From assembly GCA_051313645.2 (NCBI GenBank), contig JBNRSN020000024.1, forward strand, positions 48,794,001-48,858,000: 64,000 nt of DNA, given 5' to 3'. The notes under the pieces were generated by a model that saw only the letters and a list, made by a program, of their open reading frames with translations, made no database searches and was not told where the DNA came from. Within the stretch, counting starts at the first letter, position 1. The number at the start of each line of letters is the position of its first letter. The DNA is from Centroscyllium fabricii. Taxonomy: Eukaryota. The position numbers and the translations under genes are program-made. Below, one piece after another: positions 27,741 through 63,560 of this stretch.

Positions 27741-28734
27741 GGCATCAATTTTCCCATAGGTGCGGGGAATTGGCGGGTTTCGGGCGGGTCAGGTTTCTGA
27801 CCCAAATGTTGAAGGGCCTGGGAGGCCCAAGCAAATTTGGCTCAATTGACTAATTAATTCCTCGCGGCGGGAACCCCTGCCAATTGACTGATTTAAGACA
27901 GAAAGCCGTCGGGGTTCGCGCTGTGTAACCACAAGAGCCCTTGATTGACAAGTCTAAGTAGTTTGGAGTGCTTGTATCTGTTGACCGAGTGCTTTGTGAT
28001 GTCATAATGCCGTGTAACCACAAGCCCTTGATTGACAAGTCTAAGTAGTTTGGAATGCTTGTATCTGTTGACTGAGTGCTTTGTGATGTCATAATGCCGT
28101 GTAACCACAAGCCCTTGATTGACCAGTCTAAGTAGTTTGGAATGCTTGTATCTGTTGACTGAGTGCTTTGTGATGCCATAATGCCCTGTAACCACAAGCC
28201 CTTGATTGACAAGTCTAAGTAGTGTGTTTCACTGGCAACCTCTTGACAGCTAGGGAAGATCTATCTGTTAATCAGTAGAAATAAGCTGGAAGGCGAGTTT
28301 TTGAAAGGTTTTTTCCCACTGGTCTTGTTCACCCTAGGGATACAGTTAGTCCCGATGCAGGCTGGAGTCCAGGGATGGCTTCTGCTGCAGCTGCTTGAAT
28401 GATAGTCAGGAAGTCACTAGTGTCCCCGCCAGGTTTCACCGGCGGCGTTTCAGGCTGGCGGGTTATGGGTGGGAAACGCTTCAAAATCGTGGGGGGGCCC
28501 TTAAAATGGCATTATACATGGCAAATAAGGGTCCCTAATGAGCCTAACGACCATCCCCGTCAGTCGCCGGCAGGAAAGATTCGGGACGGACAGACACGGC
28601 GGCGGGAAATCGCAAAGCGGCGGAGATCCGGCGGCCGGAGGGGGGGGGGGGGGGTGTCGGGACCCCCCGGCTTTGGTATTTTGTGCCCATCCCCGGCGAA
28701 AAGCCTGCCTGACGGCTCACTGAAAATTGACGCC
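27741..28734. mobile_element. Non-autonomous Harbinger-like element with an internal 87-bp tandem repeat
   Basis: TIR GGCATCAATTTTC / GAAAATTGACGCC, 3-bp ATA duplication. About 3.4 copies of an 87-bp unit at ~27922-28222. Confidence 0.78.
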
Positions 28735-30815: not shown

Positions 30816-30835
30816 AATGTGTAGATTAGCATCGA

Positions 30836-30924
30836 TGACGTGGAGGTGCCGGTGTTGGACTGGGGTGGACAATTGTAAGAAGTCACATAACACCAGGTTA
30901 TAGTCCAACAATTTTATTTGAAAT
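30836..30924 (-). repeat. Fragment of the 177-nt Penelope-related unit, without the ribozyme core
   Basis: GTGGAGGTGCCGGTGTTGGACTGGGGTGGACAATTGTAAGAAGTCAC...TTTTATTTGAAAT matches ~50799-50885. Confidence 0.8.
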
Positions 30925-32089: not shown

Positions 32090-33214
32090 TTCAGATTCAG
32101 AAATTCCAACTGGCATTTGGATCAACATTTTTAAATCAGTAATTGAGCCAATCGCACTTTATGGCAGTGAGGTGTGGGGTCTGCTAACATACCACGAATT
32201 TGCAAAATGGGACAAACACCCAATTGAGACCCTACAGGCTGAATTCTGTAAAAGTATCCTCTGGACTCAAGAGGAAAACCACAAACAATGCATGCAGGGC
32301 AGAGTTAGGCCAATATCCACTATTAATTAATATCCAAAAAAGAGCAATCATATTTTGGAAACATCTAAAATTGAGCAACCCCCACAGCTATCACTACAAA
32401 GCCCTGAAATGCCAAGAAGCGAAGATAAAGAGAAGTCCCCTCAGCCAACTTGTTCTTGGACTTAGCGAAGTAACTACTAACATTATTGGTAACAACCAGC
32501 CCCAGGACAGTGACATCCTAGCACTCAGAATTCGACCCAACACAATTATTACTAAACAAAGAGAAAAATATTTGACATACTGGACAGAAATGACAAAAAC
32601 CCAAAACAAACTAGATTGTTATTTGGCCCTAAACAGACAGTACACCATGGCTGATTACCTGACCATGGTGAAAGATAGCAAACTGAGAAAAACCCTGACA
32701 ATGTACAGACTTAGTGAGCACAGCCTAGCCATTGAAAAAGGCAGACACAGAAAGGCTTGGCTGCCCAGAGAGGAAAGGCTGTTCTCCCACTGCAGTCAGA
32801 GAGTGGTGGAAACAGAGCTGCATTTCCTCACAACTTGCGAAAACTATCAGGGCATAAGGGAGAATTTCTACCCAAAATTCGTAAAAACATGCCCTGAATT
32901 CAAAAATTTGAACAACCACCAAAAACTCCCATATCTATTGGGGGAACAGAGGGACTGTATAAAATTAGCGGCAAACTACGTCACAGCTTGCCATAAGCAG
33001 AGGGACAACTAGTGACCACTGAAGCTAAGAAGATTATATGAGATTTATATGTGGGTATATATGTATGTGTTTGCATAGTTATCCATTCACTATGTCTAGT
33101 TATGCATTTCTATGTTCAATTATATATGTCCTTTTTCTGTGCTTTGGCAACATAAGATGTATCTTGTCGTGCCTATAAAGCAATTTGAATTGAAAATTGA
33201 ATTGAATTGAAAAT
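32090..33214 (+). mobile_element. RTE-X-like LINE 3' fragment
   Basis: YGSEVWG, ACRAELG, YRLSEHSLAIEKGRH, ETELHFLTTC zinc-knuckle region, (AATTG)n tail; TGACT on both sides. Confidence 0.75.
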
Positions 33215-33215
33215 T

Positions 33216-33695
33216 GACTGGGGGAGAGATAGAGACTGGGGGAGAGAGAGAGACTGGGGGAGAGAGAGAGACTGGGGGAGAGAGAGAGACTGGGGTAGAG
33301 AGAGAGACTGGGGGAGAGAGAGAGACTGGGGGAGAGAGAGAGACTGGGGGAGAGAGAGAGACTGGGGGAGAGAGAGAGACTGGGGAGGGGAGAGAGACTG
33401 GGGGAGAGAGACACTGGGGCAGAGAGAGAGAGACTGGGGCAGAGAGAGAGAGACTGGGGCAGAGAGAGAGAGACTGGGGCAGAGAGAGAGAGACTGGGGC
33501 AGAGAGAGAGACTGGGGGAGAGAGAGACCGGGGGAGTGAGGGATGGGGAGAGAGAGACTGGGGGGAGAGAGAGGGACTGGGGGAGAGAGAGAGAGAGAGA
33601 CTGGGGGAGAGAGAGAGACTGGGGGGAGAGAGAGAGACTGGGGGGTGAGAGAGAGACTGGGAGGCAAGAGAGAGACTGGGGGAGAGAGAGAGACT
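33216..33695 (+). repeat. Purine-rich minisatellite (ACTGGGGGAGAGAGAGAG)n, left part
   Basis: Directly visible ~18-bp units with variable GA tract length. Confidence 0.97.
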
Positions 33696-38387: not shown

Positions 38388-40920
38388 GACTGGGGGAGAG
38401 AGAGAGACTGGGGGAGAGAGAGAGAATGGGGAGAGAGAGAGACTGGGGGAGAGAGAGAGAGAGAGAGAGTGGGGGAAAGAGAGAGAGACTGGGGGAGAGA
38501 GAGAGAGAGTGGGGGAGAGAGAGACTGGGGAGAGAGAGTGACTGGGGTAGAGAGAGACTGGGAGAGAGAGACTGGGGGAGAGAGGGACGGGGATAGAGAG
38601 ACTGGGGGGAGAGAGAGAGACTGGGGGAGAGAGAGAGACTGGGGGAGAGAGAGAGACTGGGGGAGAGAGAGAGACTCGGGAGAGAGATAGAGACTGGGGG
38701 AGAGAGAGACTGGGGAGAGAGAGAGAGACTGGGGAGAGAGAGAGAGACTGGGGAGAGAGAGAGAGACTGGGGAGGGGAGAGAGAGACTGGGGGAGAGAGA
38801 GGGACTGGGGAGAAAGACTGGGGGGAGAGAGACTGGGGGGGAGAGAGAGAGACTGGGGAGAGAGAGAGACTGGGGAGAGAGAGACTGGGGGAGAGCGAGA
38901 GAGACTGGGGAGAAAGGGATGGGGAGAGGGACTGGGGAGAGAGAGAGACTCGGGGTAGAGAGAGAGACTGGGGTGAGAGAGAGACTGGGGAGAGAGAGAG
39001 AGACTGGGGGAGAGAGAGAGACTGGGAGAGAGAGAGACTGGGGAGAGAGGGGGACTGGGGGAGAGAGAGAGACTGGGGAGAGAGAGACCAGGGAGAGAGA
39101 GAGAGACTGGGGGAGAGAGAGAGACTGGGGGAGAGAGAGAGACTGGGAGAGAGAGAGAGAGACTGGGGGAGAGAGAGAGAGAGAGACTGGGGGAACGAGA
39201 GGGACTGGGGGGAGAGACTGGGGAGAGAGAGACTGGGGAGAGAGAGACTGGGGGAAAGAGAGAGACTGGGGAGAGAGAGACTGGGGAGAGAGAGAGACTG
39301 GGGGAGAGAGAGAGACTGGGGGAGAGAGAGAGACTGGGGGAGAGAGAGAGAGAGACTGGGGAGAGAGAGAGAGAGACTGGGGAGAGAGGGACGGGGAAAG
39401 AGGGGGACTGGGGAAGAGAGAGAGAGAGACTGGGGGAGAGAGAGACTAGGGAGAGAGAGAGAGACTGGGGGAGAGAGAGAGAGAGACTGGGGAGAGAGAG
39501 AGACTGGGGAGAGAGAGAGACGGGGAGAGAGAGACTGGGGGAGAGAGAGACTGGGGAGAGAGAGACTGGGGGAGAGAGAGAGAGAGACTGGGGGAGAGAG
39601 AGAGACTGGGGGAGAGAGAGAGAGACTGGGGGGGGAGAGAGAGACACTGGGGGAGAGAGAGAGACTGGGGGAGAGAGAGAGACTGGGGGAGAGAGAGAGA
39701 CTGGGGTAAAGAGAGACTGGGGGAGAGAGAGAGAGACTGGGGGAGAGAGGGACGGGGGAGAGAGAGAGAGGGACTGGGGAGAGAGAGAGAGGGACGGGGG
39801 AGAGAGAGAGAGAGTGACGGGGGAGAGAGAGGGACTGGGGGAGACAGAGGCAGAGAGAGAGAGGGACTGGGGGAGACAGAGGCAGAGAGAGAGAGGGACT
39901 GGGGGAGAGAGAGACGGAGGGAGAGAGGGACTGGGGGAGAGAGAGAGACTGGGAGAGAGAGAGACTGGGGAGAGAGGGGGACTGGGGGAGAGAGAGAGAC
40001 TGGGGAGAGAGAGACCAGGGAGAGAGAGAGAGACTGGGGGAGAGAGAGAGACTGGGGGAGAGAGAGAGACTGGGAGAGAGAGAGAGAGACTGGGGGAGAG
40101 AGAGAGAGAGAGACTGGGGGAACGAGAGGGACTGGGGGGAGAGACTGGGGAGAGAGAGACTGGGGAGAGAGAGACTGGGGGAAAGAGAGAGACTGGGGAG
40201 AGAGAGACTGGGGAGAGAGAGAGACTGGGGGAGAGAGAGAGACTGGGGGAGAGAGAGAGACTGGGGGAGAGAGAGAGAGAGACTGGGGAGAGAGGGACGG
40301 GGAAAGAGGGGGACTGGGGAAGAGAGAGAGAGAGACTGGGGGAGAGAGAGACTAGGGAGAGAGAGAGAGACTGGGGGAGAGAGAGAGAGAGACTGGGGAG
40401 AGAGAGAGACTGGGGAGAGAGAGAGACGGGGAGAGAGAGACTGGGGGAGAGAGAGACTGGGGGAGAGAGAGACTGGGGGAGAGAGAGAGAGAGACTGGGG
40501 GAGAGAGAGAGACTGGGGGAGAGAGAGAGAGACTGGGGGGGAGAGAGAGACACTGGGGGAGAGAGAGAGACTGGGGGAGAGAGAGAGACTGGGGGAGAGA
40601 GAGAGACTGGGGTAAAGAGAGAGACTGGGGGAGAGAGAGACTGGGGGAGAGAGAGACTGGGGGAGAGAGAGAGAGACTGGGGGAGAGAGGGACGGGGGAG
40701 AGAGAGAGAGGGACTGGGGAGAGAGAGAGAGGGACGGGGGAGAGAGAGAGAGAGTGACGGGGGAGAGAGAGGGACTGGGGGAGACAGAGGCAGAGAGAGA
40801 GAGGGACTGGGGGAGACAGAGGCAGAGAGAGAGAGGGACTGGGGGAGAGAGAGACGGAGGGAGAGAGGGACTGGGGGAGAGAGAGACGGAGGGAGAGAGA
40901 GAGAGGGACGGGGGGGGGGG
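38388..40920 (+). repeat. Purine-rich minisatellite (ACTGGGGGAGAGAGAGAG)n, right part, with a ~0.92-kb higher-order duplication
   Basis: Rare variant units recur, e.g. AACGAGAGGG at 39194 and 40121, GAGTGACGG at 39812 and 40752. Confidence 0.95.
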
Positions 40921-41718: not shown

Positions 41719-44700
41719 TGTGGGATACTACCATCTCCCAGCGAAATAATCAGCCAAAATCAAGAGGTTAACTCAATACAGGTCTTTACTACTCAACTCC
41801 AGGAAACACAATGAATTCAAAGGCCCACGAAACACGCTACAATGTCACGGCTTGGTCATGTGATCTCCGTTTCCCCCCTCTCTTAAAGGGGAGGGGAAAA
41901 CTGCTAGTTAAAGGGGAGTTTATATGTTTAACTATGTACAGACATTTAATCCCCGATGTGAAACACCACATGCGCCCCCCCCCCCCCAGAATCCTCTTTA
42001 ACTGTAAAAGGCAGTCTTTCGGGCGGCTTGATCAAGCGGCCGTAGCGGCTGTAGTGCCCGGATGGTGGACGAGGAGTCGTCTCTGGAAGGTTGTCCTGCT
42101 GAGGCACTGGTGGCATCGTCGGCTGCTCTGGCGATGTGCTAGCGGAAGGCTTAGCAGGTGGCAACGGCGGGGCAACCGGAGGGAGAGGCGGAGTTAAAAA
42201 CTGGTTAGCAAGAGGGCTGGCAGGTGGTCTTGGTGTTGTGGGTGGTCTGCCACACCGCGGGGTGAGAGCTGGCTGCACTGGTGAGCTGAGGTCCAGATGG
42301 GCCAGCTTCAAGCGGTCCACCAAAATGTGGTCAGGTTTCCCGCCAACGTCTATGATGAAGGATTTTTCTCCTGCCTCTAAAACTGGAAAAGGTCCTGTGT
42401 AGGGTGCTTGAAGGGGGTCCTTCTGCGCGTCCCGGCGTAAGAAGATGAACTCTGCCTGGTGTAAGTCCCTTGGAACATGAGGGAGTTGGGGGCCGTGCTG
42501 GGACGTGGGCACCAGTCGAAATTGCTTCGCGGATTCTTGATGCAGCGATCGCTGCGTGGACGGGGTCCAGGGCTCGTTTGTGAAGGGCAGAAATTCGCCT
42601 GAGACTCTAAGTGGTTGTCCATAAACCATTTCGGCCGCTGACGACTTGAGATCTTCCTTGGGTGTGGTGCGCAGTCCCAGGAGGACCCAGGGTAACTTGT
42701 CAATCCAGCCGGTATCGGCCAGGCAAGCTCGCAAGGAGGCCTTCAACGACCTGTGGAAGCGCTCGCAGAGGCCATTGGCCTGCGGGTGTTAGGCTGTGGT
42801 TCTGTTGAGTTTTGCTCCTAACCCATCGGCGACAGCATTCCACAGCTGGGAGGTGAACTGGGGGCCTCTGTCGGATGAGATATCGGCGGGGACGCTGAAT
42901 CTGGCCATCCAGGAGGATATAAAGGCTCTTGCAACGTCTGCTGCGGTGGTGGAGGTTAGGGGAACCACCTCGGGCCATCTTGTGGTGCGGTCGACGATGG
43001 TGAGGAGATGTTTGTAGCCATGTGATGGCGGCAGTCGGCCAACCAGGTCCACATGAATGTGGTCGAAACGCCTTTCGGACACGGGGAAATGTTCATGGGG
43101 CGCTTTGGTGTGTTGTTGGACCTTCGCCCTCTGACACACCACACAGGTGTTCGTCCAGTCCCGCATGTCTTTGTGGAGACCGGGCCACACGAATTTCGCT
43201 GCCATGAGCTTCTGGGACGCTCTCATGCCTGGGCGGGAAAGCCCATGAACTACGTCAAAAACCTGCTTGCGCCAGGAGAGCGGGACTACTGGCCGCGGGT
43301 CCTTGACCGACATGTCGCAGAAGAGAGTTGCACCAGCCACTTGAAAGTGTAAGTCGGCCAGGTTGAGGCCGGTCGTCGCTGACCTTAGTACCTGAATTTC
43401 GGCGTCTGCAGCTTGGTCCTTTGCCATACTGGCGTAATCAACGCCTAGGTGCACGGCATGCAGAGAGGGTCGTGAGAGGCAATCGGCAACCATGTTGTCT
43501 TTACCAGCCACGTGGCGGATGTCTGTGGTGAATTCGGAGATTAAATTAAGCTGGCGCTGTTGGCGTGCAGACCAAGGTTCTGCTGCTTTTGCCATGGCAA
43601 AAGTCAATGGTTTGTGGTCAACGAACGCTGTGAATGACCGGCCTTCTAGCAGGAACCTGAAGTGCCTGACTGCCAAAAACAGGGCGAGCAGCTCTCTGTC
43701 AAACGTGCTGTATGCTTGTTCGGTCGACCCACTGCTGCTGCACCGCCCCAATGGCGTAGTCGGATGCATCAGTTGTAAGGGCGACCGTGGCGCCCGGAAT
43801 GGGGTGAGACAAAAGTGTGGCGTTGGCCAAGGCTTGCTTGGTGTTCTCGAAAGCAGAGGTCATTTCCTCGGACCAGGGCGGCACGGTGGCAAAGTGGTCA
43901 GCACTGTTGCCTCACAGCACCAGAGACCCGGGTTCAAATCCAGCCTCGGGTACTATCTGTGTGGAGTTTGCACATTCTCCCCGTGTCTGCATGGGTTTCC
44001 TCCGGGTGCTCCGGTTTCCTCCCACAGTCCAAAGATGTGCGGGTTAGGTTGATTGGCCAGGATAAATTGACCATTAGTGTTAGGGGGATTGAATATGTGG
44101 GGTTACGGGGATAGGATGGGATATGGATTGAGGGATATGGGGACAAGGCAGGGACGGGGTACTGGGTTTGGATGATCAGCCATGATCCCATTGAATGGCG
44201 GAGCAGGCTCGAAGGGCCGAATGGCCTACTCCTGCTCCTAGTTTCTATGTTTCTATGTCAGCGGCTCTTTCCCGGTCTTGCCCCTGGTGGCCTCGTAGAG
44301 AGGGCGCATGAGTGAGGTGGCTTTGGGCACGAAGCGGTAGTAAAAGTTAACCATGCCGAAAAACTCTTGGGAGAGCTTTGACCGACGTGGGCTGGGGGAA
44401 ATCTGACACCGCCTGCACCTTGGTGGGAAGGGGAATTGCGCCTTCTGCCGGAATTTGGTGACCCAGAAAATTGATTTGGGCCAGCCCGAATTGGCATTTT
44501 GCAGGGTTAACGATAATCCCGTGATGGTTCAGGCGTTGTAAAAGGGAGCGCAGATGCAAGATGTGCTCTGCCTTGCTGGTGCTGGCCACGACGATGTCAT
44601 CTAGGTAAACAAAAAGGAAAGTCAGGTCGCGGAGCACCGAATCCATAAGGCGCTGGAAGGCCTGTGCGGCATTCTTCAGCCCGAAGGGCATTCGCAGGAA

Positions 44701-46534
44701 TTCAAAAAGCCCGAAAGGGGTAATCACTGCCGTCTTCCGGATGTCCTCCTGGTGGACTGGGACCTGATGGTAGCCCCGTACCAGGTCTACCTTGGAGAAA
44801 ATAGTTTTTCCTGCCAGGTGCGGTGAGAAGTACCGGATGTGTGGAATGGGATAGCGGTCCAGCGTGGTGGCATCGTTGAGCCGCCTGTAATCCCTGCACG
44901 GTGGCTAGCCGCCGCCAGGCTTGGGTACAATGTGGAGTGAGGACGACCAGGGACTATTTGAACGCTGAACAATGCCCAATTTCTCCATCGTCGTGAACTC
45001 TTCTTTGGCAATGGCCATCTTGGCTGGATCGAGGCGTCTGGCCCGGGTGTACACCGGTAGGCCTGTGGTGGCGATGTAGTGTTCCACGCCATGCTTCGCT
45101 GCCGAAGCTGAAAAGGTTGGCTGCGTGAGCCCTGGAAACTCTGCCAGAAGGCGGGCGTTATCGTCCTTTGTCGGTGAGGAGCAGGACCAAACAATGGCTG
45201 GCCTGTTGCTGCACTGGCATGTCAAAGAGTTGAAGGTGGCTGCGTCAATGAGGCGTCTGTCGCGGACGTCGACCAAAAGTCCGTGAGCACACAGGAAATC
45301 CGCGCCTAGCAGGGGCTGTGAGACGGAGGCTGTCGCGAAATCCCAGGTGAATCTCTGGCTGTTGAAGCAGACTTCCGCCCGCCGCTTTCCAAACATGCGG
45401 ATGGCAGCGCCATTGGCTGCCACGAGGGGAGGGCTGCCTGGATGTCGAGGGTTGAGGCTGGGATGATGCTGCACTGCGCGCCTGTGTCGCAGAGGAATTG
45501 CCGTCCAGACAGGGAATCGGTGATGTAAAGGAGCTTCCCCGCGAAGCTGACAGCCATCGTGGCGGCTGGGGTGCTTTCAGAAGGGGTTAGTCGGTGGCGG
45601 AAAATCGGTGGGCTGGGTCGGACGCTCTTTTTTTTGTGTTGAGCGAGCATGGAGGGCGGCAGCGCAGGCCCTTCACGCCGAAACGGGCATGATAGTAACA
45701 AAGGCCTGTGGTTTGGCGAGGCAATGTGCGCTCCGTGGGGGAGGGGAGCCTCGTGGCTGCAAAGCCGTGTTGGGCTACAGCGTATATCTTGTCTGCTGCG
45801 GCCGCGTGTTTAACACAATCTGTGATCGGGGAGGGCTGCTTGAACCTGCTGCGGGAGCTGGCTCAGGAATAAGACCCGGAATAAAAAGCACTGCGGTTCT
45901 GATTCCAGAAGGGTGAGCATCCGGCTCATCAACTGGGTCGGGGTGGAGTCGCCAAGGCCTGGTAACGAGAGAAGCCGGCGTGTTCTCTCTTCTTGGGACA
46001 GGCTGAAGACCTGCAAGAGTCCATCTTTCACTGCTTCATACTTGCCGACGGCTGGGGGGTTCCCCAGAAGATCCATGATTTCGGCAGCCGTGGAGCTCTC
46101 GAGGGCTGAAACTGTGTGGAAATATCGTTCCTCATTGCCCTCGACTTTTCGGAGCGAGAACTAGGCCTCTGTATGGGCGAACCAGGCGGGCGCTTGCTGT
46201 TCCCAAAACGAAGGAAGCTTTCAGGCCACAGCGCTGGTCGCCATTGTGCTGCTTGGGTCAACAGCTTCGTCTGTTGACATCGGGGTCACCAATGTGGGAG
46301 ACTACGGTCTCCCAGCGAAATAATCAGCCGAAACCAAGAGGTTAACTCAATACAGGTCTTTACTGCTCAACTCCAACAAACAGAATGAATTCAAAAGCCC
46401 GCGAAACGCGCTGCAACGTCACGGCTTGGTCATGTGATCTCCGTTTTCCCTCTCTCTTACAGGAGAGGGGAAAACTGCCAGTTAAAGGGGATTTTACAAG
46501 TTTCACTGTGTGCAGACATTTAATCTCCAATGTG
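41719..46534 (-). mobile_element. Degenerate Gypsy LTR retrotransposon, CsRn1-like
   Basis: Diverged LTRs 41719-41970 and 46293-46534 (the latter clipped), PBS TGGTGACCCCGATG (tRNA-Trp type), poly-G PPT, and frameshifted gag, protease (LCDTGA), RT (YLDD), RNase H and integrase pieces. Confidence 0.9.
43877..44257 (+). mobile_element. V-SINE (HE1-like) inserted in the Gypsy pol
   Basis: Complete head, V domain and (TATGTTTC) tail. Confidence 0.88.
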
Positions 46535-50272: not shown

Positions 50273-50705
50273 CTGATATCAAAGAAAGATATCAAAGAAG
50301 CATATTTCTGCACAATGTGTGCCAATATTGTATGTAGGCAGGATGAAGTTGCTTACTGTTAGGAAAACTAAGAAACGATTACTGTGACAACCATACCATC
50401 AAATCCAACATGAAGTGAAATAAAGAGAGGGAAAGAAAGATGGGATTAAGAGAGATGAACGAGACAAAAAAAAGTAAAATAAAGTGTTTATCTTAATTTA
50501 AAAAAAATCTCCAACAATAATTAAAATCTGAAGGAATGAGACATCATACTTTTAAAAGTAAATTTTCAGTACCAGAGAGGTTGTTTGGCAGAAATTAAGA
50601 GTTGCTACGCTGTTAAAAATCATTTACACTTGAATGGTCAAACCCTAACTTTTTCTGTATGAAGTCACATAACACCAGGTTATAGTCCAACAGTTTTATT
50701 TGAAA

Positions 50706-50742
50706 TCACAAGCTTTCGGAGCGCCGCTCCTTCATCAGGTGC
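50706..50742 (-). ncRNA. Minimal type-I hammerhead ribozyme motif, family A
   Basis: Reverse complement CAC-CTGATGA-A-GGAGC GGC GCTCC-GAAA-GCT-T-GTG. Confidence 0.8.
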
Positions 50743-50978
50743 ATGTAAAGAGATTAACCTTGGAGCTGGCAGTTTGTGGTGTCGATAGTAGCTATGATGT
50801 GGAGGTGCCAGTGTTGGACAGGGGTGGACAATTGTAAGAAGTCACACAACACCAGGTTATAACCTAACAGTTTTATTTGAAATCACAAGCTTTCGGAGCG
50901 CTGTGCCTTCATCTACATCATGGCTACTATCGACACCACAAACTGCCGGCTCCAAGTGGAGAGGTTAATCTCTTCACT

Positions 50979-51015
50979 TCACCTGATGAAGGAGCTGCGC
51001 TCCGAAAGCTTGTGA
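50979..51015 (+). ncRNA. Minimal type-I hammerhead ribozyme motif, family A
   Basis: TCAC-CTGATGA-A-GGAGC TGC GCTCC-GAAA-GCT-T-GTGA: stem I TCAC/GTGA, 5-bp stem II, palindromic AGCT. Confidence 0.82.
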
Positions 51016-51719
51016 TTTCAAATAAAACTGTTGGACTATAACCTGGTGTTGAGCCCAGGACAGTGACGTCCTAGCACTCAGAATCCGACCCAACACAATT
51101 ATTACTAAACAAAAAGAAAAATACTTGAATTACTGGACAGAAATGACAAAAACCCAAAACAAACTAGATTGTTATTTGGCCCTAAACAGACAGTACACCA
51201 TGGCTGATTACCTGACCATGGTGAAAGATAGCAAACTGAGAAAAACCCTGACAATGTACAGACTTAGTGAGCACAGCCTAGCTATCGAAAAAGGCAGACA
51301 CAGAAAGACTTGGCTGCCCAGAGAGGAAAGGCTGTGCTCCCACTGCAGTCAGGGAGTGGTGGAGACAGAGCTGCACTTCCTCACAACTTGCAAAAACTAT
51401 CAGGGAATAAGGGGAAATTTCTTCCCAAAATTTGCAACAACATGCCCTGAATTCAAAAATTTGAACGACCACCAAAAACTCCCATATCTATTGGGGGAAC
51501 AGAGGGACTGAATAAAATTAGCGGCAAACTACGTCACAGCTTGCCATAAGCAGAGGGACAACCAGTGACCACTGAAGCTGAGAAGGGCATACAAGATCTA
51601 TATGCGGGTGTCTATGTATGTGTTTGTGTAGCTATTCATTCTATACGTCTGGTTATGCATTTGTATGTCCAATTGTATATGTTCTTTTTAGATCTATATG
51701 CGGGTTTTTATGTGTATGC

Positions 51720-54700
51720 TGTTGGGTTTTGGTGGCGGGCGAAAGAATGCCTGAGGCAGTTAACATGAACACAACAGCTTTATTGACTTCAACTACAGAG
51801 TGGTTGCTTTCGCGCTCTTTTCCAGCTAAATATAGCGCTGGCTACGTCATTGCGTAACAAGGCAATGACGTAAGCACGTCCGCGCGTGTGCGCATGCGCG
51901 GAGCGTTTTTGCGTCGGCACTGGCCTCGCGAGAGTAGCGCGCCTCGGGCCAGTGCCTTCAGGGTCCAAGAGTCCGGTCGATTCGACCACAAGTCCGTGGC
52001 AAGCCGCCACATAGCTCCCCCCAGAATCCGACTAGGAGGAATGGACGAGACGTTGCGGCGGTCTGATAAGTCGGCCGGATCGGCTCCTGCTTGGAGACAG
52101 CTGGCGAGCTGTGGTCGGGCGAGCTGGTTGGCCGGCGGGTCGACCACGTGGCGGTGGGTGGGCAACTAGTGTGGCCTCGCCGGGCTCAGTGTGCGCCGGC
52201 TTGAGCCTGTCAATTGACACAGTTTCAGTCCTGCTGCCCACCTGCAATTTGAAAAATTTGTCCCCCGCTTGAAGCACCTTGTAAGGCCCGTCGTATGGCA
52301 GCTGCAGAGGCCCGCGGTGTGCGTCGTGGCGGACAAAGACGAACTGCGCCTGATGTAGTCTAGGCGGAATCTGCGCAGTCGTTTCACCATGCCTGGTCAC
52401 GGGTACCGGTGTAAACTGTTGCGCCGACGTGGTGAAGTCGAGGCGCTGCTGGTTGGCTGACCAGGGTGTCGTAGCGGCGGCCAGGAATTCGCCGGGTACA
52501 CGCAGTGGTTGTCCGAAGACCAACTCCGCTGCCGATGCATGAAGGTCCTCTTTGACCGCAGATCGGAGACCAAGTAAAACCCATGGGAGGCGGTCAGTCC
52601 AGGCGTTGTCTGTGAGGCTGGCCCGTAGGGAAGCTTTCATTGATCTGTGGAATCGTTCACACATACCGTTGGCTTGCGGGTGGTACGCCGTTGTGTGGTG
52701 CAAGTTCACCCCCAGGCTCTTCGCGACGGCAGACCATAATGCTGAGGTGAACTGTGACCCTCTGTCGGATGTGATGTCAGAAGGCACGCCAAACCGGGCG
52801 ACCCATGTGGCGATGAAGGCTCTGGCGATGTCCGCAGTGGTGGTGGAAGTCAGCGGAATAGCTTCGGGCCATCGAGTGGTGCGGTCCACGATAGTGAGCA
52901 AGTGGGTGTTGCCTTGTGACGGTGGCAGGGGTCCCACGATATCCACATGGATGTGATCAAACCGTCGTGCGGGAACTTCGATCTGACCGAGGGGAGCTTT
53001 CGTGTGCTGATGCACCTTTGCCCGTTGGCAAGCTACGCAGGAGTTGGCCCAAGTACGCACATCCTTACTAAGGCCGCGCCAGATAAAGCGACTGGTTACC
53101 AATTTTATTGATGCGCGGGCGCCGGGGTGGGAGAGGTTGTGGAGCGTCTCGAATATGTGCTTGCGCCACGATGCTGGGACGACTGGCCGGGGTTGCGGCA
53201 GGGTTATGTCGCACGTGACGTTAGTGTCGGCGGGGCCGCAGGCGACGGTGGCCAAGCGCAGGCTGGGTAGGGTGGTGGGCGCGGAGAGCAGGTCCGGGTC
53301 TGTGACCTGGTCCGCTGCGAGTTTGACATAGTCCACCGCCAGGTGAGTGGCGTTGATGGTTGCGCGGGAGAGACAATCGGCCACCACGTTGTCGCGTCCG
53401 GCGATGTGGCGTATGTCGGTGGTGAATTCGGATATGGCCGCGAGCTGGCGCTGTTGTCTAGCGGACCAGGGCTCGGTTGGCTTGGCCATCCCGAATGTGA
53501 GGGGTTTGTGGTCCACAAACGCGGTGAAGACCCGACCCTCCAGCAGAAAGCGAAAATGTCGGACCGCTAGGTACAAGGCAAGGAGCTCGCGGTCGAAGGC
53601 GCTGTACTTCACCTCCGGGGGGCGCAGCTGGCGGCTGAAGAAGGCGAGGGGCTGCCAGGCGCCGTCGACCCACTGTTCGTACACAGCCCCGACCGCGTAG
53701 TCGGAGGCGTCAGTAGTGAGTGCCACCTTGGCGTTGGGCCGTGGGTGTGCGAGCATGGTGGCGCCGGCGAGTGCCGATTTGGTGGAGTCGAAGGCGGCGG
53801 AGGTTTGCGCCGTCCATTCGACCACATCCTTCCCGCTCTTCCCGCGGAGGGCTTGGTAGAGGGGGCTCATGAGGGATGCCGCTTTGGGGATAAAGCGGTT
53901 GTAGAAGTTCACCATCCCGAGGAACTCTTGGAGCCCCCGGACGGTGGTGGGCCGGGGAAATTGCTGGACGGCTTGCACCTTGTTGGGCAGGGGAATGGCC
54001 CCGGCTTGTGTTATGCGGTGGCCTAGGAAGTCGATCTGTTCGAGACCGAACTGGCACTTGGCGGGGTTGAGGATGAGGCCGTGTTCGCTGAGGCGCGTGA
54101 ACAGGGCCCTGAGGTGCTCGAGGTGTTCCCGTTTGGAGGAACTGGCTACTAGGATGTCGTCAAGATAGACAAACAGGAACTTCAGATCCCGTAGGACCGA
54201 GTCCATTAGCCGTTGGAATGCCTGCGCGGCGTTTTTAAGGCCGAAAGGCATTCGCAAGAACTCGAACAGCCCAAAAGGGGTGATGACCGCGGTCTTGGGG
54301 ATGTCATCGGCGTGGACGGGGACTTGGTGGTAGCCGCGCACCAGGTCGACTTTGGAGAAGACTGAGCACCTGGCCAGTCTAGCCGAAAAGTCCTGGATGT
54401 GCGGCACTGGGTACCGATCGGGCGTGGTAGCGTCGTTGAGGCGACGGTAATCCCCGCAGGGGCGCCAGCCCCCGTCGGGTTTAGGGGCAATGTGGAGCGG
54501 TGAGGCCCACGGGCTGTTGGAGCGGCGGATGATACCCAGCTGCTCCATAGTGGCGAACTCGTTCCGCGCGACCTCTAACTTGGCCGGGTCTAACCTGCGG
54601 GCGTGGGCGTGCACCGGTGGGCCGGTGGTGGGAATGTAATGCTCTACCCCATGTTTGGCTACCCTAGCGGTGAAGGTCGGGTTGGTGAGGGCCGGGAATG

Positions 54701-56167
54701 CGGCCAGGAGCGTCGAGTAGGCGTCCGTGGGACGGGCGTGGCACTGTATGGTCAAGCTGGCGGGCTGGGCTGGGGTCGTGTCGCCCGGGATGGTTGTCAT
54801 GGAGTTGATGTCCACGAGGCGGCGCCGGGGCATGTCGACCAACAGGCCGTGAGCGCAAAGGAAGTCTGCGCCGATGATTGGCGAGAGTATCTTTGCGGTG
54901 AGAAATTCCCACGTATAACAGCGCCCTGCGAGCTGGAGCTGTACCGTGCGGTTGCCGTACGTCGGGATGTCGGAACCGTTGGCCGCGGCGAGCGCCGGGC
55001 CCCGCGTGCCTGTTTTAATTTCGAGGGCGGAGGCGGGCACAATGCTATGCTGGGCCCCGGTGTCGCAGAGAAAACGGCATCCGGTTTTGTCATCCGTGAC
55101 ATATAGGAGGCAACCGGCCTGTCCGACAGACATGGTAGGGGCTGGTGATAGGGCAGGCCTAAAGGTGCAAGGTTGTGCGCACCGTTGTGCCCTGGTGCCG
55201 AACCGGGTGTGGTAGTAGCAGTACCCTGGCTTAGGCGGGTCTGGGGGACGTGGCGGTCGTGTGGGCCTGGGTGCCGGTCCTTGCGACCGCGTGGTGGGAG
55301 CGGCTGGATGCGCCGTGGCGGCGGCCGCCAAATCCGCGGTGTCGTGGCCCCGTTGCCCGTCCATCAGCCTGTCGGCCAGGCTGGCTAGGTCTGCTAGGCT
55401 CCGGATTTCGGACGCGACGATGGTGGGGCGTATGCTGGAAGGGAGTTGGTTAATGAAAAGCGTGCGGAAGAGGGAACCCGGGGGATTCTCGTCCGTGAGC
55501 GAGAGCATGTGGGAGAGGAGGCGCGAAGGTGAAGCGTCACCGAGGCCTTGCAGGGCCAGGAGCTGACTGCAGCGCTGGTACTGGGAATCGGTGAACCTTT
55601 TAAGTAGCGCGGCCTTAAGATGTACATACTTGCCCTGTTGAGGTGGGTTCTGCAGCTCTGCCCAGACTTCCGTCACCGTGGAGCTCCCCAGCGAAGTTAC
55701 CAGGTAGTCATATCGCACTTCCTCTTTGTTGACCCGGTGCAGCCTGAACCGGGATTCAGCTTGAGCAAACCAGGCTTCGGGCTGGTTTGTCCAGAACTCA
55801 GGCAGCCGGACCGCGGCTATGCTTGCGTCCGCCATCGTTGGGTTCGAAATCCGTTTCGAACGTCGAGGTCACCAATGTTGGGTTTTGGTGGCGGGCGAAA
55901 GAATGCCTGAGGCAGTTAACATGAACACAACAGCTTTATTGACTTCAACTACAGAGTGGTTGCTTTCGCGCTCTTTTCCAGCTAAATATAGCGCTGGCTA
56001 CGTCATTGCGTAACAAGGCAATGACGTAAGCACGTCCGCGCGTGTGCGCATGCGCGGAGCGTTTTTGCGTCGGCACTGGCCTCGCGAGAGTAGCGCGCCT
56101 CGGGCCAGTGCCTTCAGGGTCCAAGAGTCCGGTCGATTCGACCACAAGTCCGTGGCAAGCCGCCACA
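51720..56167 (-). mobile_element. Intact Gypsy LTR retrotransposon, CsRn1 clade
   Basis: 292-bp TG..CA LTRs at 51720-52011 and 55876-56167 with no difference seen, ATGC 4-bp TSD, PBS TGGTGACCTCGACGT (tRNA-Trp type), PPT GGGGGGAG. Confidence 0.97.
52032..55835 (-). CDS. Gag-Pol polyprotein (Gag with CHCC motif, protease, RT, RNase H, integrase)
   Basis: 1267 aa uninterrupted: CYYHTRFGTRAQRCAQPC, LCDTGA, YLDD, TTDASD, HHCC zinc finger, DDE core, GPY motif. Confidence 0.96.
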   Translation of the reverse strand: MADASIAAVRLPEFWTNQPEAWFAQAESRFRLHRVNKEEVRYDYLVTSLGSSTVTEVWAELQNPPQQGKYVHLKAALLKRFTDSQYQRCSQLLALQGLGDASPSRLLSHMLSLTDENPPGSLFRTLFINQLPSSIRPTIVASEIRSLADLASLADRLMDGQRGHDTADLAAAATAHPAAPTTRSQGPAPRPTRPPRPPDPPKPGYCYYHTRFGTRAQRCAQPCTFRPALSPAPTMSVGQAGCLLYVTDDKTGCRFLCDTGAQHSIVPASALEIKTGTRGPALAAANGSDIPTYGNRTVQLQLAGRCYTWEFLTAKILSPIIGADFLCAHGLLVDMPRRRLVDINSMTTIPGDTTPAQPASLTIQCHARPTDAYSTLLAAFPALTNPTFTARVAKHGVEHYIPTTGPPVHAHARRLDPAKLEVARNEFATMEQLGIIRRSNSPWASPLHIAPKPDGGWRPCGDYRRLNDATTPDRYPVPHIQDFSARLARCSVFSKVDLVRGYHQVPVHADDIPKTAVITPFGLFEFLRMPFGLKNAAQAFQRLMDSVLRDLKFLFVYLDDILVASSSKREHLEHLRALFTRLSEHGLILNPAKCQFGLEQIDFLGHRITQAGAIPLPNKVQAVQQFPRPTTVRGLQEFLGMVNFYNRFIPKAASLMSPLYQALRGKSGKDVVEWTAQTSAAFDSTKSALAGATMLAHPRPNAKVALTTDASDYAVGAVYEQWVDGAWQPLAFFSRQLRPPEVKYSAFDRELLALYLAVRHFRFLLEGRVFTAFVDHKPLTFGMAKPTEPWSARQQRQLAAISEFTTDIRHIAGRDNVVADCLSRATINATHLAVDYVKLAADQVTDPDLLSAPTTLPSLRLATVACGPADTNVTCDITLPQPRPVVPASWRKHIFETLHNLSHPGARASIKLVTSRFIWRGLSKDVRTWANSCVACQRAKVHQHTKAPLGQIEVPARRFDHIHVDIVGPLPPSQGNTHLLTIVDRTTRWPEAIPLTSTTTADIARAFIATWVARFGVPSDITSDRGSQFTSALWSAVAKSLGVNLHHTTAYHPQANGMCERFHRSMKASLRASLTDNAWTDRLPWVLLGLRSAVKEDLHASAAELVFGQPLRVPGEFLAAATTPWSANQQRLDFTTSAQQFTPVPVTRHGETTAQIPPRLHQAQFVFVRHDAHRGPLQLPYDGPYKVLQAGDKFFKLQVGSRTETVSIDRLKPAHTEPGEATLVAHPPPRGRPAGQPARPTTARQLSPSRSRSGRLIRPPQRLVHSS

Positions 56168-56224
56168 ATGCATAGTTATTCATTCAATACGTCTGGTTAT
56201 GCATTTGTATGTCCAACTGTATAT

Positions 56225-56646
56225 AAGATAAGATAAGATTCAATTTATTGTCATTGTAAAGTGAACATACACAAAACAACGAAATGCAAACATGCAATCT
56301 CCCAAATTATTAAATGTCCTTGGTCCCAGTCTGATCCATTCCATCCCACCAGGCGCTGCAGCCACGATGCGCCCGGTGCCGGCCACGCAGGCCCTGGCGC
56401 TCCAGCCACGACGGCCCCACAGCTCTCCGAGCCCGACGGCCCCACGGCTTCACCGAGCCCGACGGCCCCACGGCTTCACCGAGCCCGCTCTCAGCACCCT
56501 GGCGCTCCGATGACCACGACGGCTTGTTCAGCACCAGTGCCCCGATTGAGGAGCACTGGTGCTCTACTCCACCGACCCCGCCGTCCTCTCCAGGAACAGT
56601 GCGGGAACCAGGGACATTAAAAAATCGGGAGACGCAAAGCACATTA
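56225..56646 (-). mobile_element. Short non-coding retroposon with a (TCTTA)n tail
   Basis: TGTATAT duplicated at 56218-56224 and 56647-56653; reverse-complement 3' end ACAATGACAATAAATTGAATCTTATCTTATCTT. Confidence 0.65.
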
Positions 56647-57750
56647 TGTATATGTTCTTTTTCTGTGCTTTGGCAACATAGGATGTATCTTGTCATGCCA
56701 ATAAAGCAATTTGAATTGAGAATTGAGTGTGACTTCTTCCAATTGTCCACCCCAGTCCAACACCGGCACCTCCACATCATAACGTTTTCTGGTGTGTTTC
56801 GTGGGTATCTAGTGGGGCTCGACTAGAGCATAAACGCCGGCATGAACTGGTTGGGCCGAATGGTCTGTTGCTGTGCCATATGTATCCTATGTAATCCCAG
56901 TAGGTAAGTACCCCAAATTCACATTCTTCATGCATCTGAATGCTGAGTCTCTCCTCGAGGTATTGGTGTAGCGAAGCTTGTGGAGGAGCAGGGCAACTCG
57001 GGACAGCAACTTCCTGATTTCCGTGTTTATCTGCGCCTGTGCGGTACATTATACGACGTGCTAAATCTAGGCCAATGTGCGCCACTACTGTCCAATTTAC
57101 TCCTTTATAATGGTGAGCGCTGATAGCCTCGCCATTATTTTAACTGCAATTAATGCATTGCCTTGACATACGAGACCCACCTCCTGCTCCCTGACCCCAT
57201 TTCTACTAAACTGACTACCCAATTTATGCTCGCTGAAATTGTAAATGGTTCCCTCTCCTCAAGTACTGTTCCCCTCCATTTCAAAACCCCTGTCATCACC
57301 GCTCGCTCAAACGCCCACCAGACCAGACAAGTACAGCACGATTCCTTCCTTCAAGGGGACTGGTGAACCTGTTGGGGTTTTCCTGATAAGAGCATTTTAT
57401 TGCCAGATTTAAACTGAATGAAAATGCTCAAACTGCCGTGGTGGGATTTGAACTCACGTTCTCTGGATTAGTTCAAGCCTCTGGATTACTGGTCCAGTAA
57501 CATAATCACGAGACTATATGCCTATATATTGCCCCTGTGCTTGATGATTTACATTGGCCCGCGGTCCCCCAAAGACTCAAATTTAAAACTCTCATCCTTT
57601 TGGACTCCAGGGAAATCAAGGGATATGGAGATCGGGCGGGAAAGTGGAGTTGAGGTCGATCTTATTGAATGGCGGAGCAGGCTCGAGGGGCTGTATGGCC
57701 TACACCTGCTCTTACTTATGTTCTTGTATTTAAATCCCTACATCGCCTTG

Positions 57751-58145: not shown

Positions 58146-58829
58146 CTCCTCGCTCTGTCTGTAATCTCCTCCAGCCCTTTGACACCCTTCCCAAATGCTT
58201 CGTTCCCTTGACTTTGGCCTTTTGTGCAATCCCGCCTCCCCCTCTTATCGCACCATTGGCTGCCATGAAATTCAGCTGTCAAGGTCCCATGTTCTGGAAT
58301 CCCCTTCCTAAACTCCTCCACCTAACTCTCCTCCTTTAAGACACGACTTAATACCAACCCCTTTGACCAAGCTTCTGGTCACCTCTCCGAAAATCTCCTT
58401 CTTTGGCATAGCATTCATTTCTATCTGATTAAACCTCTGTGAAGTTCCTTGGAATATTTTTTTCCATGTTAAAGACGCAAAATAAATGCACGTTCCTGGT
58501 CGGCATCTGTCAACGTTCAATGCGCTGGACAACTGCATCAACTACAACGGGAAGAGAGACCGCTATGATAGATTTTATTGAGAGTAAACAAAGAACTACT
58601 TCTGTTCTTTAGTTTTTGTAACTTTCCCTAGTTCTATCCATTCTTGAATATAAAGTGTAGGTAATTTAAGTTAATTTACTTGTGGATGTTTAGCTCTTGT
58701 TCCCAATGTGGTCTCATTTTGACTGAACACCCAAGTCTAAAAGCTTTAGCATAAAATTGGTATTCACTAAATGTGGGGCTCACTGTATCAGCGAAGTTAT
58801 TTTTAAACCTGTTGCTGAATATGTCGCTA

Positions 58830-60337
58830 TACACCAGATACATCGCCGACATTTTCCTCCTGTGGACCCACGGCGAAGAATCACTGAAAAGACGACACGA
58901 TAACAAACAAGTTCCATCCCACCATCAAACTCACCATGGACTACTCCTCAGAATCTGTTTCATTCTTGGACACACGAATCTCCATCAAAGACGGACACCT
59001 CAGCACTTCCCTCTACCGCAAGCCCACGGACAACCTCACGATGCTCCATTACTCCAGCTTCCACCCTAACCACGTTAAAGCAGCCATCCCCTATGGATAA
59101 GCCCAGCGAATACCAGGATCTGCTCAGACGAGGAGGAACGCGATGGATACCTACAGACACTGAAAGGTGCCCTTGTAAGAACGGGATATGACACTCGACT
59201 CATCGATCGACAGTTCCGACGGGCCACAGCGAAAAATCGCATAGACCTCCTCAGAAGACGAACACGGGACACAACCAACAGAGTACCCTTTGTCGTCCAG
59301 TACTTTCCCGGAGCGGAGAAACTACGCCATGTTCTTCGCAGCCTTCAACATGTCATCGATGACGACGAACACCTCGCTAAGGCCATCCCCACGCCTCCAC
59401 TACTCGCCTTCAAACAGCCGCCTAACCTGAAACAGACCATCGTTCGCAGCAAATTACCCAGCTTTCACGAGAACAGCGACCATGACACCAACCACACAAC
59501 CCTGCCACGGCAACCTCTGCAAGACGTGCCAGATCATCAGCACAGATACCATCATCACACGTGAGGACACCACCCACCAGGTACACGGTACATACTCATG
59601 TGACTCGACCAACGTTGTCTACCTCATACGTTGCAGGAAAGGATGCCCCGGGGCATGGTACATCAGCGAGACCATGCAGACACTACGACAACGGATGAAC
59701 GGACACCGCACAACAATCGCCAGGCAGGAGTGTTCCCTCCCAGTCGGGGAACACTTCAGCAGTCAAGGACATTCAGCCTCCGATCTTCGGGTAAGCATTC
59801 TCCAAGGTGGCCTTCGAGACACACGACAACGCAAAATCGGCACACCGAGGCTGATAGCCAAGTTCCGCACTCACGAGCATGGCCCCAACCGAGATATTGG
59901 CTTCATGTCGCGCTACATGTGACCCCACCTGACGTAGAGTCATCCAGACTCGAGTCGTCTTTGGCTTGTCCTCACCACGCAGATGTGGCTGTACCGGCTG
60001 CGATTGCCAGCAAGAAAAATCTTTTTTTTAAATTGTTCTGTGTAGGTTTTCACACAGACCCAGACTGCAACATTTGACCCTGTGTGACTGCACCTCATTG
60101 TTCCTAGGGTGGTGCCTGCCTGACTGATCTGTTTAAACACCATTCACACCTTTGATTGCTATGAATGTCTCTCTGCCGAGGTGTGATATAGGGCAGTTGG
60201 AAAGATTACATTGTTCTCCGTCTATATATGCTGTGTTTAAATGCATCTCTATTACACCTGATGAAGGAGCAATGCTCCGAAAGCTTGTGATTTCAAATAA
60301 AACTGTTGGACTATAACCTGGTGCTGAGTGACTTCTT
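58830..60337 (+). mobile_element. Penelope-like element, 5'-truncated (RT C-terminus, GIY-YIG endonuclease, pseudo-LTR)
   Basis: RYIADIFLLW (degenerate RYIDD), FLDT, HP..VKAAIPYG, CKTC..SCDSTNVVYLIRC..YISET..RMNGH; hammerhead motif near the 3' end. Confidence 0.9.
60255..60289 (+). ncRNA. Minimal type-I hammerhead ribozyme motif, family A, in the Penelope pseudo-LTR
   Basis: CAC-CTGATGA-A-GGAGC AAT GCTCC-GAAA-GCT-T-GTG. Confidence 0.8.
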
Positions 60338-61034
60338 GTATTTGAATATGTGTGTGGCGTTCCACTTACTGCCTGTAGGTGGTGAGTGAATTACACAAAA
60401 CAGGAATTACGAGTTTCTATCTTCACTCTTGTGAAAGAAGAGCTTGATTGATCAGAGTGTTTTATGGTCAGAATCCAATAATCAAAATACAGTCTTAAAA
60501 CTCACAGCATAATCTATTTTTTCATATTATTGTAGGTGAAAGGGTAGAAAACCAGACTGTGACAACTGACATTAAGTAACAGCTAAAACAGTTTAGATTT
60601 GCTTTTTCAGGAACCAATTACCAGTAAATATTATAAATGGCCAGTAAATATTATAAATGCATGACCCTGCTTCATAGATACGAAAGGTTTAATTTATAAA
60701 ATAAATCCTAAAACCAAAGCACACCTCAAGAATGATTTGCTTCTTAAAATCCCACCTCGCTTTTATACAGCGAGCCACCAATATTCCCCACTTGAAGTTT
60801 CCTCTGACACTGCAGTTTCTCTTTAGGCTGCAAGGCTTCTCAAAATGCCAGTAAGTCAGCTTGTCTCCTTCCTGCTGAACTGTTAATCAGCATTTGTCTC
60901 AGACTGTCATAATTCAAGGGGATAACCCTTGGTTGAACTATTTGCACAACACCCAGAATGCATCTGAACCCAGGATATTATTTTAACAATTTTCAACAAT
61001 GAGTTCAACAATTTTAGCTCATAACCTCGGCCCA

Positions 61035-62964: not shown

Positions 62965-63001
62965 AGTTCTGAAGAAAGGTCATCGACCTGAAACGTTAAC
63001 T
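62965..63001 (+). ncRNA. Minimal type-I hammerhead ribozyme motif, family B
   Basis: AGTT-CTGAAGA-A-AGGTC ATC GACCT-GAAA-CGT-T-AACT. Confidence 0.75.
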
Positions 63002-63560
63002 CTGTTTCTCTCTCCACCGATGCTGCCTGGCCTGCTGAGTTTCTCCAGCGTTTTCTGTTGTTATTATTTTAACAACTTGCATTTCTATGTCGCTCCTTAT
63101 GCGCAGAGACACATCTCAAAGCAATGGAGAAATAGCCACAGAGCAGGAGGAAAAAGAGTATAGAGGGGCTAAGGGATGCAAAAATCTGATCAAAGAAAGG
63201 GGGACTTAAAGCCACTCGAAAACATGAAGGGAGGTGATGAGGTGCATGGGAAGTGAGTGGCTATCAATGAACAAGCAATCGAGTGTCTATAAATATATTC
63301 AAGAAGGAGTTAGATATATTTCTCAAAGCTAAAGGGATCAAGGGATATGGGGAGAAGGCAGGAACAGGGTACTAAATTTGGATGATCAACCATGATCTCA
63401 TTGAATGGTGGAGCAGGCTCGAGGGGCCGAATGGCCGACTCCTGTTCCTATCTTCGATTTTTCTATGTATCGAGATGTATGGCTAGAGGAGATTACTGAG
63501 GCAAGGTGGTGTGAGGCAATTGAAGGTCAAGAAGAGGATATTCAAATCAATTCACTACGG

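Follow-up and report, generated by a model that had tools for sequence, protein, structure and literature searches.

The ribozyme-bearing repeat block at positions 50658-56780 of the window (the whole 64-kb stretch of DNA analysed) is probably the trace of a single retrotransposition event, in which a non-autonomous, internally deleted derivative (hereafter mini-PLE) of a Penelope-like element (PLE) was copied in trans from multimeric RNA. The insertion looks old and inactive, and a LINE that itself holds an LTR retrotransposon now interrupts its span (Table 1). The locus would exemplify how a unit of retrozyme size arises from a PLE, i.e., through loss of internal sequence with the ORF start retained. 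Its tail, inverted arm and target-site duplication (TSD) point to PLE enzymes for insertion.

Table 1 Features of the locus, of the elements nested in it and of related insertions in the window
Feature	Position	Strand	Remarks
Left TSD, TAACTTTTTCTG	50646..50657	.	11/12 match to 56780-56791
Minus arm, 256 nt	50658..50913	-	clipped pseudo-LTR (pLTR) A, tail, ORF codons 1-12, junction, complete pLTR B
Hammerhead B, complete minimal type-I	50707..50741	-	predicted cut after 50710
ORF-start remnant, codons 1-12	50760..50795	-	ATA in place of the start codon; differs from the plus-arm copy at 2 of 40 nt
Hammerhead A, clipped	50884..50913	-	starts at -50913
Plus arm, part 1	50912..51053	+	ORF start, junction and hammerhead C, then pLTR as far as the nested LINE
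PLE ORF codons 1-15, MATIDTTNCRLQVER	50920..50964	+	matches residues 1-15 of P0035
10-bp hairpin across the junction	50954..50979	+	formed by ORF codons 12-15 with the 3' UTR stretch directly preceding the ribozyme
Hammerhead C, complete minimal type-I	50979..51015	+	loop II UGC; predicted cut after 51011
Nested insertions, later than the element	51054..56726	+	LINE interrupted by a block with the presumed Gypsy-type LTR element
5'-truncated LINE	51054-51689 and 56649-56726	+	collinear with the uninterrupted copy at 32501-33200, 93%
LTR element, presumed Gypsy-type	51720-56167	-	inside the LINE; uninterrupted ORF of 1278 aa
Plus arm, part 2	56727..56780	+	remaining pLTR and ~40-nt tail
Right TSD, TAACGTTTTCTG	56780..56791	.	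pairs with the left copy
Insertion D, coding PLE, 5'-truncated, frameshifted	58825..60342	+	stop at 59920-59922; 9-bp TSD
Insertion E, 90-nt pLTR/tail fragment	30835..30924	-	10-bp TSD

The minimal type-I hammerheads at the locus are real: a descriptor of this class matched 4 sites in the window and none in any of 100 dinucleotide-shuffled versions. A first reading of the letters alone (the sequence-only reading) had listed two full cores and a clipped middle copy, and these are found at -50738 (copy B), +50983 (copy C) and -50913 (copy A), respectively. In agreement with that reading, both B and C carry a CAC/GUG stem I (3 bp in the minus copy B, 4 bp in the plus copy C), a CUGAUGA box, a stem II (GGAGC/GCUCC), the GAAA box, an AGCU palindrome in place of helix III and the predicted cut triplet CUU. 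One extra A follows the CUGAUGA box, and stem II has 5 bp with G-C as its first pair; the extra base between positions 9 and 10.1 and the G10.1-C11.1 pair are thus present. The same reading had given loops GGC, UGC and AAU over a conserved stem II. The first two belong to B and C, whereas AAU is that of a hammerhead 9 kb away (60255-60289, core at +60258), in the coding copy D; the stem is kept in B and C and broken in the clipped copy A (GGCAC/GCUCC), which is also without the 5' strand of stem I and the CU of the core, its substrate half (GAAAGCUU/GUG) being intact. The CUGANGA ... GAAA ... NUH core is conserved in B, C and D and clipped in A. Pairwise differences among B, C and D fall largely within the three loop II bases (1 of 2, 3 of 4 and 3 of 5), a concentration that suggests selection on the ribozyme. 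A hammerhead model search, which had been proposed as a check, came back negative: Rfam gave 0 matches, hence no hammerhead model, for the whole 64-kb window at the gathering threshold, and at E<=10 for 50500-51200 (701 nt) it gave 3 weak unrelated matches, none of them a hammerhead and two being miRNA hairpin models that merely reflect the inverted arms. The locus is likewise absent from the 20 rows that Tandem Repeats Finder produced for the window.

Judged by their sequence, these are the pLTR ribozymes of a shark PLE, as the same ribozyme and tail terminate the coding insertion D (63 of 67 nt identical between D and C). Insertion D reads, in order, the end of the RT, the thumb, a CxxxxCxxC linker, GIY-YIG, stop codon, 3' UTR, hammerhead and a 3' end of the short kind described below. 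Pfam recognised nothing in any of its 4 translated pieces and only RVT_1 in P0001, a shark protein to which D is 87% identical across the endonuclease, and the GIY-YIG assignment of D is based on motifs and homologues. The host can be called a shark because the best matches of the D endonuclease are shark proteins (Heptranchias perlo 87%, Scyliorhinus torazame 83% and Mustelus asterias 77% identity, among 34 matches in 75 candidates), in keeping with the cartilaginous-fish origin proposed from the letters. The linker motif is CHGNLCKTC in D, a CX2-5CxxC type that also occurs in P0001 and in P0035 (introduced below); according to the available part of PMC8557442, the CxxxxCxxC linker marks Neptune and Nematis among PLEs with a C-terminal endonuclease. 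By this motif, which is common to Nematis, the parent PLE would be Neptune-type. The anatomy of the ribozymes, together with the coding copy D, bears out the earlier assignment to Penelope-type minimal type-I hammerheads with a dimer-only fold. The sequence-only reading had also asked whether the unit occurs only as the terminus of coding Penelope copies: ribozyme and tail do end the coding D, and the short unit is more than such a terminus.

The short unit carries a remnant of the PLE reading frame. On the plus arm the frame MATIDTTNCRLQVER opens with ATG at +50920 and is identical at 8 of 15 and similar at 11 of 15 positions to residues 1-15 of P0035, a full-length relative of 881 aa (beginning MPYLDTTTRRIKVER; 65% identical to P0001) that was retrieved by a protein search with P0001, the best shark match of copy D. 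Compared with 124066 positions in 182 proteins, MATIDTTNCRLQVER scores highest at residue 1 of P0035 (39, against 28 for the runner-up), and in the reverse test the P0035 N-terminus finds +50920 as the best of the 127906 six-frame 15-mers of the window (39, next 26). The similarity stops at the junction, with a score of 39 before it and -15 for the following 15 residues, and the modest pairwise E of 0.007 for the match refers to one relative and 15 residues. Residues 16-507 of P0035 have no tblastn match below E 0.8 anywhere in the window. When a shark protein with such an N-terminus was sought, 0 of 2 candidates reached E<=10 for the 44-codon frame that holds the peptide and 0 of 63 reached E<=1 for P0035 residues 1-130 against shorter proteins; an N-terminal match is likewise absent among the first 34 proteins. 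The unit had been described as purely non-coding; this has to be revised, for it contains a PLE start codon and 12-15 codons. The ~20 nt that follow the codons resemble the 3' UTR of D just ahead of the D ribozyme. On this comparison the unit is pLTR, tail and ORF start joined to the next pLTR, i.e., a putative internally deleted mini-PLE, from which roughly 2.9 kb would be missing (a figure derived from the 881 codons and the ~330-nt UTR of D).

The same junction between ORF start and ribozyme is present on both arms, which upholds the short non-autonomous unit seen in the letters; within the 64 kb this amounts to 1 junction-bearing insertion with 2 junctions. The two differ by 7 nt, missing from the minus arm between two AG microhomologies, and by 3 nearby differences. 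The hairpin across the junction has a folding energy of -12.6 kcal/mol in the plus arm (against -1.4) and is absent from the minus arm, where the 7 nt are missing. Splicing was considered as the cause of the deletion, given a GT after the minus-arm breakpoint in the longer copy, and rejected: a 7-nt difference cannot be an intron, and a single donor cannot yield both junctions.

The architecture of the block is in keeping with one insertion. As the earlier reading had it, repeats spaced by 177 nt on the minus strand are followed by an inversion: a direct repeat of 81 nt (50656-50736 and 50833-50913, 90% identity) precedes inverted arms (50671-50741 and 50980-51050) that are 99% complementary. 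The 177-nt tandem unit holds for the spacing in the minus arm only, where the tandem comprises 256 nt or ~1.45 units; the plus arm has a period of 183 and is an inverted, 5'-truncated copy, head-to-head with the minus arm. The right end had been placed at 51053, where the plus arm halts because the nested LINE begins there, and must be moved: the arm resumes past the nested insertion, in register with 51050 and differing from the minus-arm tail at 3 of 54 nt, and stops at the AT of the start codon. A 12-bp TSD with one mismatch encloses the whole inverted block, a match that 34 of 20000 random position pairs reached in one anchored null and 17 of 10000 in another; the search for an empty site with both flanks gave no paralogue of the target within the window. 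The related insertions are flanked in the same manner, D at 58816/60343 (null 14/10000) and E at 30825/30923 (9/10 match; null 29/10000), and the TSD sizes (12 bp with one mismatch, 9 bp for D, 10 bp with one mismatch for E) all lie in the PLE range of ~8-12 bp. The 4 3' termini examined fall in two classes ~40 nt apart, the short ones just after GACTTC (B, which ends the minus arm, and D) and the long ones at the start-codon AT (F and E); the tail of ~40 nt is found at the right end of the block only. Adjacent repeats that are 90-99% alike would also fit a rearrangement at the DNA level, with no RNA step, in which a solo pLTR was locally duplicated in tandem and inverted after its insertion. 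This is very improbable given the TSD around both arms, outer ends that are both family-specific 3' ends and a junction between stretches that 2.9 kb separate in the parent element.

We therefore favor, as probable, a single insertion of the mini-PLE, and its history might be as follows. A shark PLE would have lost ~2.9 kb between ORF codon 15 and ~20 nt before the pLTR hammerhead, a deletion that the pairing of ORF codons 12-15 with the 3' UTR (the 10-bp hairpin) may have guided, leaving a ~183-nt unit of ribozyme, pLTR, tail, start codon and 15 codons. The RT/endonuclease of an intact family member would then have acted in trans on multimeric RNA of this unit, reverse transcription being primed at both DNA nicks and at the two initiation sites of the family. 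The expected outcome is a partial tandem head-to-head with an inverted copy, one end bearing a tail of ~40 nt and the whole enclosed by a 12-bp TSD; the LINE and subsequently the Gypsy element would have inserted into it. We infer a pre-existing mini-element family, a linear and mostly uncleaved multimeric template and mobilisation in trans: the mini-PLE should predate the insertion because both arms carry the junction, and the template must have extended across intact cut sites, which are read through in both arms, and would hence have been largely uncleaved. A circular template would also be compatible with the small divergence of the copies (2-7 of 67 nt, within the range expected from age alone), the excess divergence of A not being significant (A-B 7/67 vs B-C 2/67, Fisher p 0.16).

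Against a family stands the fact that this is the sole junction-bearing insertion in the window, and the 7 nt and 3 differences also fit two independent template jumps. The locus might then be a one-off product, the RT having jumped twice, 7 nt apart, across the same structured hot spot of a full-length tandem PLE RNA. Junctions that differ by exactly 7 nt between two AG microhomologies, a plus-arm hairpin that could bring the ends together and the lack of the junction in the other two family insertions (D and E) are all in line with this. It requires, however, two near-identical 2.9-kb jumps in a single event, where a 7-nt microhomology deletion after unit formation is simpler, and complementarity between the 3' UTR of the coding D and the ORF start is only partial, so that we regard it as unlikely, if the strongest of the competing explanations.

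A further explanation, which develops the sequence-only reading, takes the locus for the dead offspring of a shark non-LTR retrozyme. Tandem arrays at other genomic sites would cleave themselves after CUU in dimeric form, and the ~180-nt circles so formed would be reinserted through rolling reverse transcription. The unit size and TSD are within the ranges of such elements (150-450 bp and >4 bp; PMC7229834, in its available text), the more-than-unit arms fit a circular template, the variation among B, C and D is concentrated in loop II, and tandem hammerhead repeats with a mean of 363 bp are known from one chondrichthyan (accessible part of 10.64898/2026.07.22.740005). Insertion E begins 3-5 nt beyond the predicted position of cleavage (n=1) and has its 3' end at the start codon; it may stem from a cleaved RNA or have been truncated by chance. 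The folding data speak against the retrozyme. The 177-nt minus-arm monomer (the form folded against shuffles, rather than the 183-nt one) is not self-paired but less structured than shuffled sequences, with 49% of bases paired, z of +1.1 as a circle and +1.24 when linear, and 176 of 200 shuffles folding as well as the linear form. The ribozyme can, in these models, fold only as a dimer, and the active dimer fold (-17.5 to -20.7 kcal/mol) lies 10-17 kcal/mol above the inactive dimer (-29 to -34.6 kcal/mol), in energies that hold no tertiary terms. These energetics accord with the low activity reported for the minimal class in the portions available of PMC4209133 and PMC6765202; in the corresponding texts, cleavage failed in 8 of 9 Xenopus dimers (10.64898/2026.07.22.740005), an Anolis PLE uses uncleaved RNA (PMC11167929), and the coral and axolotl repeats that produce circles have canonical rather than minimal ribozymes (PMC7229834). 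Cleavage would thus be weak, dimer-only and possibly protein-assisted. At the locus itself each strand has one complete ribozyme, hence no monomer can be released in cis, and at most B could cleave the site of A. The release of ~177-nt monomers or circles, as had been suggested, is not supported here, with no strand carrying two complete ribozymes, a unit length that differs between the arms and a poorly structured monomer; taken as a whole, the retrozyme origin is doubtful, a little more so than the double jump.

Equally doubtful is the idea that the locus captures a retrozyme at its birth, i.e., a ~183-nt mini-PLE family formed by hairpin-guided deletion, with circular RNA made by a protein-assisted minimal dimer hammerhead and inserted by the enzymes of the parent PLE. 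If true, it would provide a direct link between PLEs and retrozymes at the sequence level (ORF start, tail, TSD and inverted arm) with the helper element identified, and it would make E a copy of RNA cleaved in vivo.

The stretch holds further repeats. The LTR element, which we take to be Gypsy-type on its domain motifs, has 292-bp LTRs that are 100% identical and is very young; a 16-bp duplication (51674/56647) flanks the block inside the LINE, and a relative, 70% identical, lies near 42585-45306. Both LINE 3' ends (the nested copy and 32501-33200) have a CCHC-like motif at the C-terminus and a tail of the TTGAA type; the nested copy aligns with the other from its very first base, and its insertion point within the pLTR shows a TTGAG microhomology. 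Two plus-strand arrays of an 18-nt purine-rich unit, GACTGGGGGAGAGAGAGA, each directly adjoin a preceding TTGAA-type repeat (33216-33695, 26 copies; 38388-40904, 143 copies). An 87-nt tandem repeat (27923-28223, 3.4 copies, 96% matches) gave no hammerhead core in scans. A second minimal hammerhead family is seen at 62966-63060 (+), with stem I GUU/AAC, stem II AGGUC/GACCU, palindrome ACGU and site GUU, so that all three helices differ from those of the first family with pairing kept; no clear TSD or ORF context was found for it there. Right after the stop codon of D, at 59925-60012 (+), is a degenerate hammerhead-like motif that aligns weakly with this second family (score 32, reached by 1 of 500 shuffles), and an older pLTR may have been captured in the 3' UTR of D.

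The locus reveals no new class of RNA or element. Its value lies in locus-level support for the derivation of animal retrozymes from PLEs as non-autonomous elements, which was recently proposed from co-occurrence and pLTR similarity, and in offering a small test substrate, both for the cutting of a minimal PLE hammerhead in vivo and for circles versus linear multimers as the source of more-than-unit insertions. In the literature, as far as its text was accessible and outside Repbase, Dfam and the supplements of 10.64898/2026.07.22.740005, no description of this shark element was found; in the available parts, sharks are not among the taxa named for minimal PLE hammerheads in PMC4209133, and PMC6155905 mentions them only with regard to the name of the ribozyme.

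The minimal hammerheads of metazoan PLE pLTRs have, in the same portion of PMC4209133, a CUGANGA/GAAA core, a palindromic 15.2-16.2 and no helix III loop, and dual copies on opposite strands, 100-700 bp apart, are known. The ribozymes described here agree with them in the core, the extra 9/10.1 base, G10.1-C11.1, the palindrome and the short helix I, but have a helix II of 5 bp where the Schistosoma families have 7-8 bp. As an insertion, too, the locus resembles EN+ PLEs. In the text consulted of PMC3846280 and PMC8557442, PLEs have inverted pLTRs, TSDs of 8-10 bp, a 31-bp tail and codons of the ORF within the terminal repeat, and derivatives with internal deletions are known; PMC8969392 likewise gives the insertion layout, and in Anolis the tail is the stretch between two RT initiation sites, both DNA strands being nicked and extended (PMC11167929); the partial tandem, head-to-head inverted 5'-truncated copy, tail of 30-40 nt at one end, TSD of ~10 bp and internal deletion found here have their counterparts in the available parts of PMC3846280, PMC8557442 and PMC11167929. 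Unlike in EN+ PLEs, the ORF is cut to 12-15 codons and the whole repeat unit is 177-183 nt, and the tail ends at the start codon, whereas it ends inside the ORF in the Anolis and Adineta PLEs of the same texts.

With retrozymes, as characterised in the accessible text of PMC7229834, the locus shares a short unit (177/183 nt) without coding capacity apart from the 12-15 codon remnant, a type-I hammerhead, a head-to-tail repeat, a TSD (12 bp) longer than 4 bp and kinship with PLE pLTRs. It differs in its minimal rather than canonical ribozyme, with a helix I of 3-4 bp and a variable 3-nt loop II in place of a 6-bp helix I and loop 1-loop 2 contacts, in its 1.45 tandem units and in the retained ORF start; its single complete ribozyme per strand compares with the two consecutive complete ones by which Li et al. 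define a retrozyme (10.64898/2026.07.22.740005, in the part available), and its poorly paired monomer with the mostly self-paired monomers of the coral and axolotl repeats. The locus thus resembles a retrozyme as a short, non-autonomous, hammerhead-bearing PLE derivative, and at this site falls outside the retrozymes proper. A further parallel is the Chlamys PLE MRC1, also a short non-autonomous PLE derivative with pLTRs, head-to-tail arrangement and a 3' end common with an autonomous family, although MRC1 is an algal element from a clade without canonical hammerheads (both after the portion available of PMC8557442). Every structural feature of the locus is already known for PLEs, and a PLE origin of animal retrozymes is already proposed.
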